Part shown: positions 8,270 through 55,570 of the stretch, piece after piece
Layout of the letters: each line of letters opens with the position of its first letter
How positions within the stretch are numbered: position 1 is the stretch's first letter
Source of the DNA: an uncultured Francisellaceae bacterium
GTDB taxonomy: Bacteria > Pseudomonadota > Gammaproteobacteria > Francisellales > CACEW01
Assembly (NCBI GenBank): GCA_905612315.1
Contig: CAJQSL010000019.1
Span: 1,198 to 65,197, forward strand
Direction: 5' to 3'
Length of the DNA stretch: 64,000 bases
The notes under the pieces: generated by a model
Seen by the model: the letters and a program-made list of their open reading frames with translations, nothing else
What the model was told of the DNA's origin: nothing
Database searches by the model: none
Program-made: the position numbers and the translations under genes

Positions 8270-8515
8270 GCCCCCATCCTAACCTTCCCCCACGGGGGGA
8301 AGGAACTCTACCGTCGTTGCGAGCGAGCCGTAAGGCGAGTGCGGCAATCTCCTACATAACTGCTGTTGACTTTATTTAACTATAAGCTGTAGCAACTGGA
8401 AGGAGATTGCCGCGTCGGCTTACAGCCTCCTCGCAAAGACTACATGTGGGTTTTCTCTTCTTAATTACTTCCTTAAGTTGACGGCTATACCCCGTGGGGG
8501 GAATCCTAGGGTGGG
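8270..8515. repeat. Composite palindromic repeat: outer CCCCCATCCTAACCTTCCCCCACGGGGGGAAGG-type arms around an RPE/REP-like doublet (8313-8440)
   Basis: GTCGTTGCGAG...GCAATCTCC...GGAGATTGC...CTCGCAAAGAC inverted arms; CCCCCACGGGG mirrored by CCCCGTGGGGG near 8490. Confidence 0.85.
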
Positions 8516-9150: not shown

Positions 9151-9267
9151 GTCGTTGCGAGGAGGCGAAGCCTCCGTGGCAATCTCCTTACTGAAACTGA
9201 TATTATTACCCTAACTGCAGTTAGGTAGGAGATTGCCGCACTCGCCTGACAGCTCGCTCGCAACGAC
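9151..9267. repeat. RPE/REP-like palindromic doublet, inverted relative to the 8313-8440 copy
   Basis: GTCGTTGCGAGGAGGCGAAGCCTCCGTGGCAATCTCC...GGAGATTGCCGCACTCGCCTGACAGCTCGCTCGCAACGAC. Confidence 0.85.
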
Positions 9268-9455
9268 GGCGTTGTGGATTAAGTTCCTTAAAAACACGAA
9301 AGACACCATTAACCAAGCTCAACTTAAATTACCATATTTGAGTCCTTGCTCGAAATTGCATAAATGTAGTTTTGCAACTTTAATATTGTGGGTGTTTTTG
9401 ATTTAAAATGTCCAAACACTCCAACAACTAAAATAAACTTATATCAATTTATTTT

Positions 9456-18589: not shown

Positions 18590-18671
18590 TCGGTGCGAAC
18601 GAGCCGTAGGTGAGCCCTAGCTGCAGCTGGGAAGGAGATTGCTTCGTCACTTCGTTCCTCGCAACGACTAC
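18590..18671. repeat. Partial RPE/REP-like palindrome
   Basis: GCGAACGAGCCGTAGGTGAG...GGAGATTGCTTCGTCACTTCGTTCCTCGCAACGAC, same family as 8313 and 9151. Confidence 0.75.
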
Positions 18672-52237: not shown

Positions 52238-52327
52238 AAAATTGTAAATTGCGCGGCAAATATCACTGAAAATTGTAAATAGCGCGGCAAATTTCACTGA
52301 ATATTGTAAATAGCGCGGCAAATTTCA
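52238..52327. repeat. 31-bp tandem repeat, about 3 copies
   Basis: ATTGTAAATwGCGCGGCAAATwTCA begins at 52241, 52272 and 52303. Confidence 0.95.
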
Positions 52328-52336
52328 TAAAAAACT

Positions 52337-53671: not shown

Positions 53672-53758
53672 GCTAAACTCCTATAAAGTTATATCAAAAT
53701 TATATCTATCTTAAAAAACCAACTTAAACCAGTTTAGCATATAATTTAGAATACTTTA

Positions 53759-53807
53759 GCTAGAATAAAAAAAACACTCCGAGCCTTGCGGCTAAAGATG
53801 CAGGTGG
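53759..53807. repeat. Internally deleted copy C of the structured element
   Basis: GCTAGAATAAAAAAAACACTCCGAGCC...AAGATGCAGGTGG matches both halves of copy B; lies about 20 nt past the stop of 53827-54270. Confidence 0.7.
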
Positions 53808-53826: not shown

Positions 53827-54270
53827 CTACAATTTTTGGTAGGAACCTTCTTGTGTTAACGCACCAGAGCCATCTGCTGAATAAAATCGTATCGGTGTTG
53901 TATCAGTTACTAGTGTAATAGCACTGCTTGAATCTAATCGATATGCACCACCTCTTATACGATCTTTTTTACGACATTGTCCAACCAAATCACCTACTAG
54001 AAATAATATCGCGACGCCACAAATTACACAGAGGGCCAAAACTCCTCCGAAACAAGCAAGTTTATCCCGATAGTCATCACAATCCTTTTTATACTGCGGG
54101 GGCAAGCTCTCCCACTCTGACTCACAGATACTCAAGTAGCCCTGTTTCTTAAGTTTTTGTCTCAACGGCTCCTCCGCCGCCGCCGCGACTTTGGCATAGC
54201 ATACTGATGCGGCGAATGAGGAGACGGCAATAGTTGATAATAAGAATAATCTACATTTTGGTGGTAACAT
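53827..54270 (-). CDS. Orphan with signal peptide and one Cys-rich TM helix
   Basis: GAGGA SD; hydrophobic N-terminus; TM LACFGGVLALCVICGVAILFLVG; moderately raised GC. Confidence 0.75.
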   Translation of the reverse strand: MLPPKCRLFLLSTIAVSSFAASVCYAKVAAAAEEPLRQKLKKQGYLSICESEWESLPPQYKKDCDDYRDKLACFGGVLALCVICGVAILFLVGDLVGQCRKKDRIRGGAYRLDSSSAITLVTDTTPIRFYSADGSGALTQEGSYQKL

Positions 54271-54385: not shown

Positions 54386-54444
54386 ATTATATAGATCAAA
54401 TAAAGATTAAATCAATATTAAATCAATATTAAATCAATATTAAG
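54386..54444 (-). promoter_or_regulatory. Four tandem PmrA-like boxes (11-bp period) plus TATAAT
   Basis: Minus strand cTTAATATT-ga-tTTAATATT-ga-tTTAATATT-ga-tTTAATcTT, then TATAAT 11 nt further. Confidence 0.6.
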
Positions 54445-54541
54445 AAAACAAATTATACCAGAATTTAAATTAGGTCACGGTGATTAATTAATAATATAGA
54501 TATGTAACCTGAAGCATATTTAGAATATATGCTAGAAATTA

Positions 54542-54708
54542 TGCTAGAATAAAAAAATACTCCGAGCCACCTGCAGCTTTTGAGCAAGATGCAGTTTTTG
54601 GACTGCATCGCAGGTGGGGAGTATTGTTAATACATAGCCTTGATTAGTGTCTTAATTGAGATTCTTAATTGAGATTCTTAATTGAGATTCCTAATTGAAG
54701 GACCATGC
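54542..54708. ncRNA. Conserved structured element, copy B
   Basis: Perfect stems AATACTCC/GGAGTATT, CCACCTGC/GCAGGTGG, GATGCAGT/ACTGCATC; TGCTAGAAT just before the stem on +; T-tract after the stem on -. Confidence 0.7.
54651..54698. repeat. 13-bp tandem repeat CTTAATTGAGATT x3 plus a partial copy
   Basis: Units start at 54651, 54664, 54677; partial at 54690. Confidence 0.95.
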
Positions 54709-54856
54709 GGGGCTATAGCTGTCCATTCTCTATCAAAGGAAACCGCGCGTGGCCAAGGCGTAATATTACATTGTACTGTTAGAAGCCCTAGCTCCTACGT
54801 GTATCCGTTCTGAAAATGACTTAGCCGTTAGCAGGATCCGATGTGGGTACATCGGG

Positions 54857-55303
54857 CTACACCATACCGTGGGTCGTATCCGTGGCTTGTCCTGCTAACT
54901 GAGCGACCTGCCCGTCGTTGTCGGCGAGGGGCGTGCCCTGTTGTTCCGCGCCCCTGCGCCAGTTATCGTACAACGCAAATGCGCGTTGGTGCACCCTGCT
55001 ATTTTGGTCGCAACACCGCCACCAGAGCCCAAAGAGTAGCGCCGAAGACCCGAGGATGAAGAATGGTGATCTAGCCGACAGGCTCCACGAGTTACGCGTA
55101 ACAATGCTAATGGTTATGCCCACCACAGCCACTACTCCCAGACTAAGGCCCACGGGGCAACCGGCCGGTGCAACGGCGCTCCGGCGCGCAGCGTTCCTCG
55201 CCGTAGCCTCCCCTTGGGTTCTATGAAGGCTTTTATAGGATTCCAGCAAATCCTTCGCCTGATCACCTTCTTTCATTTTTGTATAGTGCTCAATGCTGCT
55301 CAT
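54857..55303 (-). CDS. GC-rich orphan with two TM helices
   Basis: AGGAG SD; TMs VGLSLGVVAVVGITISIV and PFFILGSSALLFGLWW; GC-rich from just after the start. Confidence 0.75.
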   Translation of the reverse strand: MSSIEHYTKMKEGDQAKDLLESYKSLHRTQGEATARNAARRSAVAPAGCPVGLSLGVVAVVGITISIVTRNSWSLSARSPFFILGSSALLFGLWWRCCDQNSRVHQRAFALYDNWRRGAEQQGTPLADNDGQVAQLAGQATDTTHGMV

Positions 55304-55536
55304 ACCACTTCTCCTAATATCGTCTATTAAAAATTTATTATTATTTGGAAATTATCTATAACCGAAATTAACTTCCTGCAGGATAATTGCCAGTTTCATA
55401 GTTAACTTAGCGAACAGGACACTTAGACTCATGATCAAAAAATATCGCTATCTGCTCCGCTGCTAGTTCTATTTGTGATCCGTAAAATTGTTACATATCA
55501 CAATGTTTTCCTAAACATAATTAACTATTCACGTAC

Positions 55537-55570
55537 ATTATGACGCATCAAATATTAAGACTTTATTAAG
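55537..55570 (-). promoter_or_regulatory. PmrA-like tandem box plus -10
   Basis: Minus strand cTTAATAaa-gt-cTTAATATT-N8-CATAAT. Confidence 0.6.

Follow-up and report, generated by a model that had tools for sequence, protein, structure and literature searches.

Structured elements beside GC-rich orphan genes in an uncultured Francisellaceae bacterium: candidate derivatives of a UG4 reverse transcriptase unit

Introduction

A stretch of 64,000 nucleotides (nt) from contig CAJQSL010000019.1 of an uncultured Francisellaceae bacterium, hereafter the window, carries two copies, A (25773-25929) and B (54532-54710), of an element that combines a branched hairpin showing compensatory changes with a tail of 39 identical nt and a −10-like box. 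A reading of this DNA made from the letters alone, without database searches (the sequence-only reading), flagged copy B as a candidate novel structured RNA with a convergent extended −10 promoter, and took it for either an antisense small RNA, exerting type I toxin-antitoxin-like control of membrane proteins, or an end or stability element at the 3' side of an mRNA, or possibly for both. The locus thus raises the question of what this hairpin is, where it came from, and whether it stands alone in the genome.

The answer leads to the reverse transcriptases (RTs) of the UG4 ('unknown group 4') group, which are widespread and occur in enterobacterial fimbrial operons, on plasmids and in Francisella. 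To our knowledge, UG4 has no known partner RNA, product or function. In the available parts of three papers, UG4 is assigned to class 2 of the UG/Abi-family RTs and described as the one non-intron RT with hints of mobility, having identical 5' flanks and unrelated 3' flanks, that lies beside genes of surface or secreted proteins and is not enriched in defence islands (PMC2602772, PMC8934634, PMC9226505). Here we show that copies A and B belong to an undescribed repeat family of three tiers, the make-up of which points to derivation from a UG4 RT unit.

Results

Copies A and B share a covarying branched hairpin

Copy A is 88% identical to copy B and 75-76% identical to two copies on contig C3 of the same genome by blastn. 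The 39-nt tail has exactly two matches in the window (25858-25896 and 54615-54653), where none is expected from 100 shuffles. Both copies have the outer stem ATACTCC/GGAGTAT, with the stems nested in each: the branched hairpin of A (25798..25867) is composed of the outer stem, a second stem and an inner hairpin, and that of B (54557..54624) is followed by a seven-T run on the minus strand. The inner stem of A reads GGTGCAGT/ACTACACC, and that of B reads GATGCAGT/ACTGCATC. Past the tail, similarity resumes at 25906-25928 and 54684-54708 (AGATTCCT..AAGGACC). Both non-Watson-Crick pairs of copy A are G.U on the minus strand only, and the C3 copies have in their outermost stem a G.U that is likewise compatible with the gene-sense strand only. 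The T-run of copy A is poor (ATTCTGATT). On the plus strand, the extended −10-like box TGCTATAAT of A (25783..25791) and the box TGCTAGAAT of B (54542..54550, with a near-duplicate TATGCTAGAAAT just upstream) each end 6 nt before the ATACTCC at the hairpin base. All that the sequence-only reading had stated of the letters, namely the nested stems, the 39-nt tail, the resumed similarity, the −10-like boxes, the wobbles and the T-tract, holds.

The four close copies (A, B and the C3 pair, which was found by blastn against the whole genome) were aligned in gene sense (alignment A2). This alignment contains 26 pairs, with 97.1% of the cells paired vs 26-46% when the partners are slid by 1-3 columns, and five pairs are altered on both sides. 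The observed percentage paired and the covariation score were reached in 0 of 500 shuffles; the number of covarying pairs was reached in 38 of 500, a measure that is weak with four sequences. The fold energy of copy A is −38.0 kcal/mol (z −4.7) on the minus strand and −29.4 kcal/mol (z −1.7) on the plus strand; for copy B the values are −41.6 kcal/mol (z −6.8) and −47.4 kcal/mol (z −6.2), respectively. A gathering scan of the window with Rfam 15 returned five tRNAs only and no match for the element, and a scan at E<=1 of 14 loci with elements and the RT locus described below returned only tRNAs and two chance matches on tRNA DNA, in line with the novelty that had been claimed for the structure.

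The element is a member of a repeat family with three tiers

The host genome is a metagenome-assembled genome (MAG) of 1.81 Mb (35% GC, 113 contigs, 90% complete), in which several copies lie at contig ends, so that copy counts are floors. It holds at least 29 related copies: one intact UG4-class RT gene, at least nine copies with an identical internal RT deletion, and about 19 RT-less miniatures, including A and B. In all three forms, a TAnAnT box is followed by a motif enclosed in a stem (GGCTTTATGAGCAA on the RT strand) and then by a GC-rich hairpin. The stand-alone small RNA gene proposed earlier is not supported: the hairpin belongs to a dispersed repeat, the kind of finding that had been named at the time as speaking against such a gene, though this repeat class is an undescribed one.

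Model R1, built from the four close copies, which include A (137.9 bits, E 4.7e-24) and B (139.5 bits) as minus-strand training rows, gave six weak further matches, every one at the edge of another GC-rich island and sharing an invariant 14-mer, (C/T)TGCTCATAAAGCC, which separates the inner hairpin from the outer stem's 3' arm. With up to one mismatch, the 14-mer TTGCTCATAAAGCC occurs 25 times in the genome, in 24 cases inside elements, and two more elements have it with two mismatches; the IUPAC pattern YTGCTCATAAAGCC occurs 22 times, and its backwards-read control 0 times. With the motif read forward, the DNA within 700 nt on the 5' side of most occurrences is GC-rich (mostly 0.5-0.68), and that on the 3' side is AT-rich. 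The motif is degenerate in both A (TTGCTCAAAAAACT, minus strand, in the hairpin junction) and B (TTGCTCA-AAAGCT), and their module 1, the GC-rich hairpin described next, has decayed too.

Subfamily 1 comprises A, B, the two C3 copies, which are in tandem, and one copy on C43; subfamily 2 comprises 13 copies; and subfamily 3 comprises longer copies. The membership of these longer copies and the conservation of the box were assessed in part by visual inspection of alignments. Module 1 of subfamily 2 has a GC-rich stem of 8 bp that closes a conserved loop (..CTCGAAC..AGGAG..) and is followed by TTTT; after it come a covarying branched hairpin bearing the motif, and GTATAG with a T-run. The 13 copies have 34 pairs, of which 88% of the cells are paired vs 33-46% when slid, and 12 pairs are altered on both sides, with a covariation score reached in 0 of 500 shuffles. 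Together with the five both-side pairs of the four close copies, these figures bear out the conserved covarying structure seen by the sequence-only reading.

Model R2, made from the 13 subfamily-2 copies only, recovers subfamily 1: the C3 copies at 2e-6 (C3b) and 3e-5 (C3a), B at 7.3e-5 in the window (E 0.002 genome-wide), and A at 0.0019 (whole window, filters off), the next window match having E 0.24. Therefore, A and B belong to the repeat family. In A, the degenerate module 1 remnant at 25906..25928 aligns with GGTCCTTCGATTAGGAAT of the C3 copies and falls on the module-1 stem of R2. The window also holds a full subfamily-2 copy with the exact motif TTGCTCATAAAGCC (63067..63221, minus strand; R2 144.9 bits as a training row) and, at 53733..53785 on the minus strand, a degenerate partial copy consisting of a 3' arm, a T-run and a TAGAAT box, a weakly supported copy with 79% blastn identity over 53 nt and an R2 score of only 8.8 bits (E 6.1). 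These two, which carry TAGAAT on the plus strand, are most likely the copies C and D in which that box had been noticed earlier.

Outside this genome, the 14-mer pattern was found twice in the related genome G005 and once in G056, there inside an RT fragment, and 0 times in the other 58 genomes searched. The G005 14-mers (L012, L013) are exact, and each lies within a short inverted repeat (CTTC/GAAG and TGCTTC/GAAGCA, respectively) with the same side mildly GC-richer; G005 has no RT match at E<=1e-5. These sites may be relic elements.

The family leads back to a UG4 RT gene

The sole intact RT gene in the genome lies on contig C50 (14703-15878) and encodes a protein of 391 amino acids (aa) with YMDD. 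The protein matches the PADLOC model RT_UG4 with E 5.8e-75 over profile positions 4-303 of 307, and Pfam RVT_1 with E 1e-21; it is under the cut-off for the group II intron RT, retron and DRT models, its best families being UG4 and group-II-like. Rfam at E<=1 gave no relevant match and no intron domains at this locus. A search with the RT protein found seven further RT fragments elsewhere in the genome.

When compared with the RT locus by blastn, the long copies consist of about 125 nt of 5' leader and the first ~10 codons joined to the last ~70 codons. The deletion junction falls at query position 654|1574 on C31, C6, C7 and in a second C50 copy, and at 654|1578-1584 in two C73 copies; additional RT 5' pieces lie at contig ends. 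This common junction indicates that one deletion derivative was multiplied to at least nine places. The motif GGCTTTATGAGCAA is translated as LYEQ within the RT remnant and corresponds to the LYEH/LYEQ codons of the RT thumb. Further downstream, the long copies have module 1 in equal relative order, and then a ribosome-binding site and a different GC-rich ORF each; in subfamily 3 these ORFs, which encode signal-peptide proteins, are on the opposite strand, so that the element is at the 5' side of the gene. The fragments, the junction, the shared order and the R2 matches form a continuous series from the intact RT through the deleted intermediates to the miniatures, in which the link from subfamily 2 to the long copies was read by eye from the 14-mer, the architecture and the module-1 similarity. 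By this comparison, the miniatures retain exactly three features, namely the putative promoter box of the RT, the hairpin with the motif, and module 1.

The plus-strand box is present in every inspected copy of the three subfamilies by eye, as TAnAnT with T1, A2, A4 and T6 kept and positions 3 and 5 varying, and in this respect it behaves like the conserved −10 box that the sequence-only reading had proposed. From the box, it is 5-7 nt to the base of the outer stem and, in the long copies, ~45 nt to the start codon of the RT. On the RT strand, the GTATAG seen in the miniatures is CTATA(A/C)T; an A-run and TGn often precede the box, TGn being found in A, B and several subfamily-2 copies. Terminator-like features are also present, namely the long stem followed by seven T in B and the 8-bp GC stem followed by TTTT in module 1 of subfamily 2. 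An A-run and a T-rich stretch lie on opposite sides of the module 1 stem, an arrangement known from two-way terminators, and the consensus fold of subfamily 2 is −12.8 in gene sense vs −20.5 in RT sense.

The motif is kept in UG4 RT genes of distant bacteria

We compared 15 UG4 RT genes with ~25-50% protein identity to the C50 RT or to a Serratia query: the C50 gene, three from related genomes (including G010 and G056), five from other gammaproteobacterial genomes, two from one Serratia genome, one from a Marinamargulisbacteria MAG and three from plasmids (E. coli, Photobacterium). Three pairs in this set are paralogues or close relatives, which brings the independent count nearer to 10-12. 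All 15 genes encode the Leu of LYEQ with CTT, a codon that makes up only 3-17% of the Leu codons elsewhere in those ORFs. Given that CTT is invariant here though rare elsewhere, the nucleotides themselves appear to be selected. The complete CTT TAT GAG CAA is found in nine genes, including one of 66% GC, against 0.006-0.05 per gene predicted from their own codon usage. Judged by this codon choice, the motif is shown to be a nucleotide-level feature of UG4 RT genes generally. In eight of the 15 genes, the minimum-energy fold has the same succession of outer stem, mini-hairpin on the motif, inner hairpin and outer stem, with stem sequences unrelated between genes. A conserved fold inside UG4 RT genes is likely but unproven, as far as such computed folds indicate.

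GC-rich orphan genes adjoin the module-1 side

The GC-rich orphan ORFs (50-64% GC) are on the hairpin (module-1) side of the copies in either orientation, and this constant placement of variable genes is shown for both orientations. In the window, the cassette gene of A (26044..26982, minus strand) encodes 312 aa with a C-terminal membrane helix (57% GC, no Pfam hit), and that of B (54857..55303, minus strand) encodes 148 aa with two membrane helices (57% GC), the distance from element to stop codon being 110-150 nt in both. An ORF of 147 aa with two membrane helices, partly AT-ameliorated, precedes the partial copy (53827-54270). The full subfamily-2 copy lies behind the 3' end of a 2000-aa ORF of 54% GC (63441..64000, minus strand) that continues past the window (contig C19 64638-70640); this largest of the GC-rich orphans has no Pfam family at E<=0.01. 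The earlier placement of the element at the 3' ends of membrane-protein ORFs was correct. Cassettes occur as tandem pairs on C3 and C111 and, in the window, at 53.7-55.3 kb.

No Pfam family was found at the thresholds used in 23 of the 26 GC-rich ORFs scanned, and weak eukaryote-type domains were found in two: ankyrin at E 9e-5 and B-box at E 5e-5, neither of which reaches the Pfam cut-off. The B-box zinc-finger match (E 4.7e-5), which falls only just short of it, is in ORF L034 (G000:C90:16414-17199); the B-box zinc finger is typical of eukaryotes. The cassette proteins are nearly all mutually unrelated, with five weak pairs among 45 ORFs. The product of ORF A has one partial homologue (54% identity) among 5.8 billion proteins, and no relatives of it were found in metagenome contigs. 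By codon position, cassette GC is ~.6 at GC1, ~.5 at GC2 and.34-.63 at GC3 (.65,.55 and.51, respectively, in ORF A), from which we infer proteins of high-GC donors partly drifted to AT. An untemplated or random origin is excluded by open frames of 2000 and 801 aa at 54-66% GC, and the two weak eukaryote-type domains count against it as well. When the 45 GC-rich ORFs were compared with the genome by blastn, no second template-like copy of any neighbouring cassette ORF was found; the non-self matches were ORFs of short REP-like repeats and the shared 5' ends of long-copy genes.

Homology also ends at the RT 3' end in UG4 loci of other bacteria: two E. coli plasmids (76%) and two Serratia paralogues (80%) have unrelated genes beyond it, and the same is described for Francisella UG4 loci in the available part of one paper (PMC2602772). 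In G010 (L043, C10:64066-67953), a UG4 RT 38% identical to that of C50 is followed by a same-strand ORF of at least 464 aa and 60% GC; an insertion sequence (IS) transposase lies upstream of this RT. The Photobacterium UG4 RT adjoins a convergent signal-peptide gene of 52% GC in a locus of 41% GC, and chaperone-usher genes adjoin the UG4 RT on three plasmids.

The composition of the cassettes has a further peculiarity. On the RT-sense strand, C exceeds G in 19 of 19 cassette ORFs, including four long-copy genes, whose sense strand is C-rich (skew −0.08 to −0.16), three housekeeping genes having +0.18 to +0.22. The C excess may reflect Thr/Pro/Ala-rich proteins rather than a strand-specific process. 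Adenine depletion on the RT-sense strand, of the kind expected for a diversity-generating retroelement (DGR), was rejected on the ordinary A/T skews.

Other features of the loci

Copy B alone has three tandem 13-nt units (AATTGAGATTCTT; 54654..54692) between the conserved tail and the module-1 remnant. Upstream of ORF B is an AT-rich 5' module (55418..55541, minus strand) common to both C3 cassettes (L001 3473-3639 and 4959-5125), to which it is 72% alike, the C3 pair being 92% alike; the cassette of copy A is without this module, and the C38 and C49 cassettes also share an AT-rich 5' module. In the C3 copies, the module contains a direct repeat, TTAYGGATAACGATG, ~37 nt apart, which may be a regulator site. 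About 20 nt beyond copy A is a TTGACA-16-TAAAAT promoter (25732..25759, minus strand) of a tRNA Pro-Arg-His-Leu operon. In a synteny comparison of locus A, a sigma-factor gene was present in 17 of 17 scored family genomes, and no tRNA lay within the nine loci examined.

Another, unrelated REP-like family of short (~45-130 nt) GC-rich repeats is present in dozens of copies genome-wide, often in tandem (8313-8460, 9151-9276 and 18630-18669 in the window, and many contigs), and yields spurious GC-rich 'ORFs'. Three tandem 31-nt units (AAAATTGTAAATTGCGCGGCAAATATCACTG and variants) are located at 52238-52330, just downstream (minus strand) of a dihydroorotase-like gene, and tandem AAATCAATATT units are located at 54409-54445, in the AT-rich spacer beyond copy B.

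Discussion

Proposed origin and function of the element

The explanation that we favour, and hold to be slightly more likely than not, is that the element is an RT-less miniature of a cis-acting UG4 RT unit, which would supply an RT-partner RNA on the plus strand and a terminator of the convergent gene on the other. The cis parts retained would be the −10 box of the RT gene, the branched hairpin with the invariant motif and the terminal GC-rich hairpin, module 1; in intact genes, the motif hairpin would fall within the 3'-terminal part of the RT ORF, which encodes the thumb. On the RT-sense strand (the plus strand of the window for A and B), the box would start a transcript of ~150 nt at the hairpin base, ending probably at module 1. 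By analogy with the non-coding RNAs (ncRNAs) of UG2, UG28 and UG27, this RNA could be the partner (binding site, template or primer) of the sole intact RT, in trans from C50. Action of the RT at the junction may underlie the turnover or installation of the neighbouring variable GC-rich gene, and this proposed action would account for the constant break of homology at that point. On the opposite strand, the hairpins and T-runs could end the convergent mRNA and so form a two-way terminator, a role that is plausible for B and subfamily 2 but less plausible for A.

Several observations weigh against this explanation. The plus-strand transcript is a prediction from sequence; the two-hexamer promoter scanner made no call at the box and found no −35, and the terminator scanner returned 0 sites for the two regions, its pattern not covering branched structures or large loops. 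The strand evidence is mixed: the wobbles of copy A favour the gene-sense (minus) strand, the G.U cells of subfamily 2 number 16 in gene sense vs 23 in RT sense, and the RT-sense strand is clearly better-folding only for the long copies, and for most of these. Copies A and B, with their degenerate motif and decayed module 1, may be dead. In the 15 UG4 RT genes, the thermodynamics of the hairpin are modest (z −4.35 to +0.86, below −2.5 in five), and the outer-stem shuffle test is weak: 13 of the 15 are above the shuffled mean and only six have 20 or fewer of 200 shuffles as high, although the test is too blunt in that shuffled flanks pair as well. No target-site duplication or A-tail was seen, no systematic search for these having been made. 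R2 did not find the element in 19 other genomes of the family at E<=0.1, and the islands are those of a MAG assembly in 113 contigs.

The most serious competitor, which we nevertheless regard as somewhat unlikely, is a shared intrinsic terminator or 3' untranslated region stabiliser of one class of horizontally acquired, co-regulated membrane- or secreted-protein genes, acting in the minus-strand RNA and related to the RT only by history. The ~19 miniatures lie directly 3' of ORFs on the same strand, the wobbles of copy A suit the minus strand only, and the GC-rich stem with TTTT in subfamily 2 and the stem of 15 bp or more with seven T in B resemble terminators; moreover, the 5' module that the cassette of B has in common with both C3 cassettes is what co-regulation would lead one to expect. 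However, the element is upstream of, and reversed to, at least seven other GC-rich genes and cannot terminate those, a terminator needs neither the invariant junction 14-mer nor an opposite-strand TAnAnT box, the T-run of A is poor (ATTCTGATT), and the scanner called no terminator. It is improbable, in our judgement, that the element is instead an antisense small RNA transcribed from the plus-strand box that regulates the convergent GC-rich gene through 3'-end overlap. The conserved TAnAnT at a fixed 5-7 nt from the stem and the plus-strand fold of B (−47.4 kcal/mol, z −6.2) are what such an RNA would have, but module 1 would halt it short of most ORFs, the stop codons of A and B being 110-150 nt away, the same putative promoter would drive the sense mRNA in the long copies, and the neighbouring ORFs are not small toxins. 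The last point also counts against the type I toxin-antitoxin-like control suggested by the sequence-only reading: the neighbours encode 147, 148 and 312 aa in the window and from 121 to 2000 aa at other copies, while a toxin ORF would be hydrophobic and <60 aa, and further GC-rich genes have the element upstream of them on their own strand. Both the terminator or stabiliser and the antisense regulator can coexist with derivation from the RT unit.

A DNA recombination site, similar to the hairpins of integron attC or REP, at which a recombinase inserts promoterless GC-rich cassettes either way round, would account for the constant side of the GC-rich DNA whatever the gene orientation, the tandem cassette pairs on C3, C111 and at 53.7-55.3 kb, the wobbles being about equal on both strands, and the orphan nature of the cassette ORFs, as in chromosomal integrons. 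We give it little credence: reading of the sequences by eye revealed no RYYYAAC/GTTRRRY cores and no single long palindrome, the genome has only two tyrosine recombinase genes, neither adjoining a copy, and no Y1 transposase (at 90% completeness), and the element is visibly derived from an RT gene. Of what the sequence-only reading made of the locus, the structure, the box and the 3' position stand; the RT link and the GC-rich islands had been missed.

An extension of the RT-unit explanation, which is speculative and in our view quite unlikely to be correct, is that UG4 RTs constitute a gene-installing 'retro-integron'. Guided by the motif and terminal hairpins of its own or the miniature RNAs, the RT would join cDNA of other transcripts to the module-1 end, and these transcripts would come from a GC-rich host or donor, as the ankyrin-like and B-box domains might suggest. 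If true, intron-free surface or effector-like genes would be built and exchanged in either orientation, the sharp GC-rich islands here and the elevated GC and unrelated genes beside UG4 RTs in other bacteria would be explained, and a possible route of eukaryote-like genes into intracellular bacteria would be at hand.

Irrespective of this extension, one intact gene, a propagated deletion derivative and ~19 minimal copies together amount to a natural dissection, which points to the three short features of the RT unit that matter. One of them is a motif of 12-14 nt conserved at synonymous sites in UG4 genes of distant bacteria. Through the family, the UG4 RT can also be linked, in a testable way, to the hypervariable gene of odd composition that is always found at its 3' end. 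Should the RT link prove to be historical only, the hairpin would still belong to a repeat family not described before, rather than being a unique riboregulator.

Comparison with known systems

Our element resembles described UG4 systems in that the C50 RT fits the profile over its full length and that the break of homology at the RT 3' end is also found in E. coli and Serratia. It differs in that the main text of the three UG4 papers, in the parts available, describes no cis element, no deletion or RT-less derivatives and no multi-copy family (PMC2602772, PMC8934634, PMC9226505), and in that the neighbours here are GC-rich orphans and not fimbrial genes. Within the literature collection searched in full text, there was no UG4 paper later than 2022.

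In systems such as DRT2 and DRT9, an ncRNA probably binds the RT and acts as its template. Structured ncRNA partners of related RTs are described for DRT2/UG2, DRT9/UG28, UG27 and DRT3/UG8, and as the msr-msd of retrons, in the available part of one paper (PMC9226505). The likeness to these partners consists in a short structured RNA that adjoins the RT and has a group-specific sequence and a conserved shape. Unlike them, the structure here overlaps the RT's own 3' coding region and has ~19 RT-less copies with their own −10 box.

Non-autonomous derivatives of retroelements are exemplified by the partnership of short and long interspersed elements (SINE/LINE) and by ORF-less group II introns. 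As in those cases, internally deleted copies keep the ends of the RT unit, outnumber it and share a deletion junction, whereas here no intron domains were found by Rfam at E<=1 at the RT locus or the elements, and each copy is joined to a different gene. Integron cassettes are orphan genes of foreign composition, each abutting a structured attC repeat of variable sequence and constant shape, at times in tandem; one orientation is expressed from the platform promoter, and the present family is similar in these respects. The platform gene here is an RT, with no attC cores and no integron integrase adjoining any copy. An attC identity was rejected on the grounds that the element is two separate hairpins, that cores are unseen in the aligned copies and that the two Phage_integrase-family genes (C72 and C92) are not beside a copy. 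REP/RAYT or IS200/IS605 was likewise rejected, PF01797 giving 0 matches from seven candidates scored (in the genome that is 90% complete). DGRs have an RT beside a variable surface- or secreted-protein gene, with a hairpin at the 3' end of that gene; here the RT is UG4 and not of the DGR clade, no template-like second copy was found for any neighbouring cassette ORF, and whole genes differ rather than a 100-nt patch.

The element is thus outside Rfam families, attC, REP/RAYT, DGR and type I toxin-antitoxin systems, and it belongs with the UG4 RTs, where its sequence suggests an RT-associated structured element or a non-autonomous retroelement derivative.

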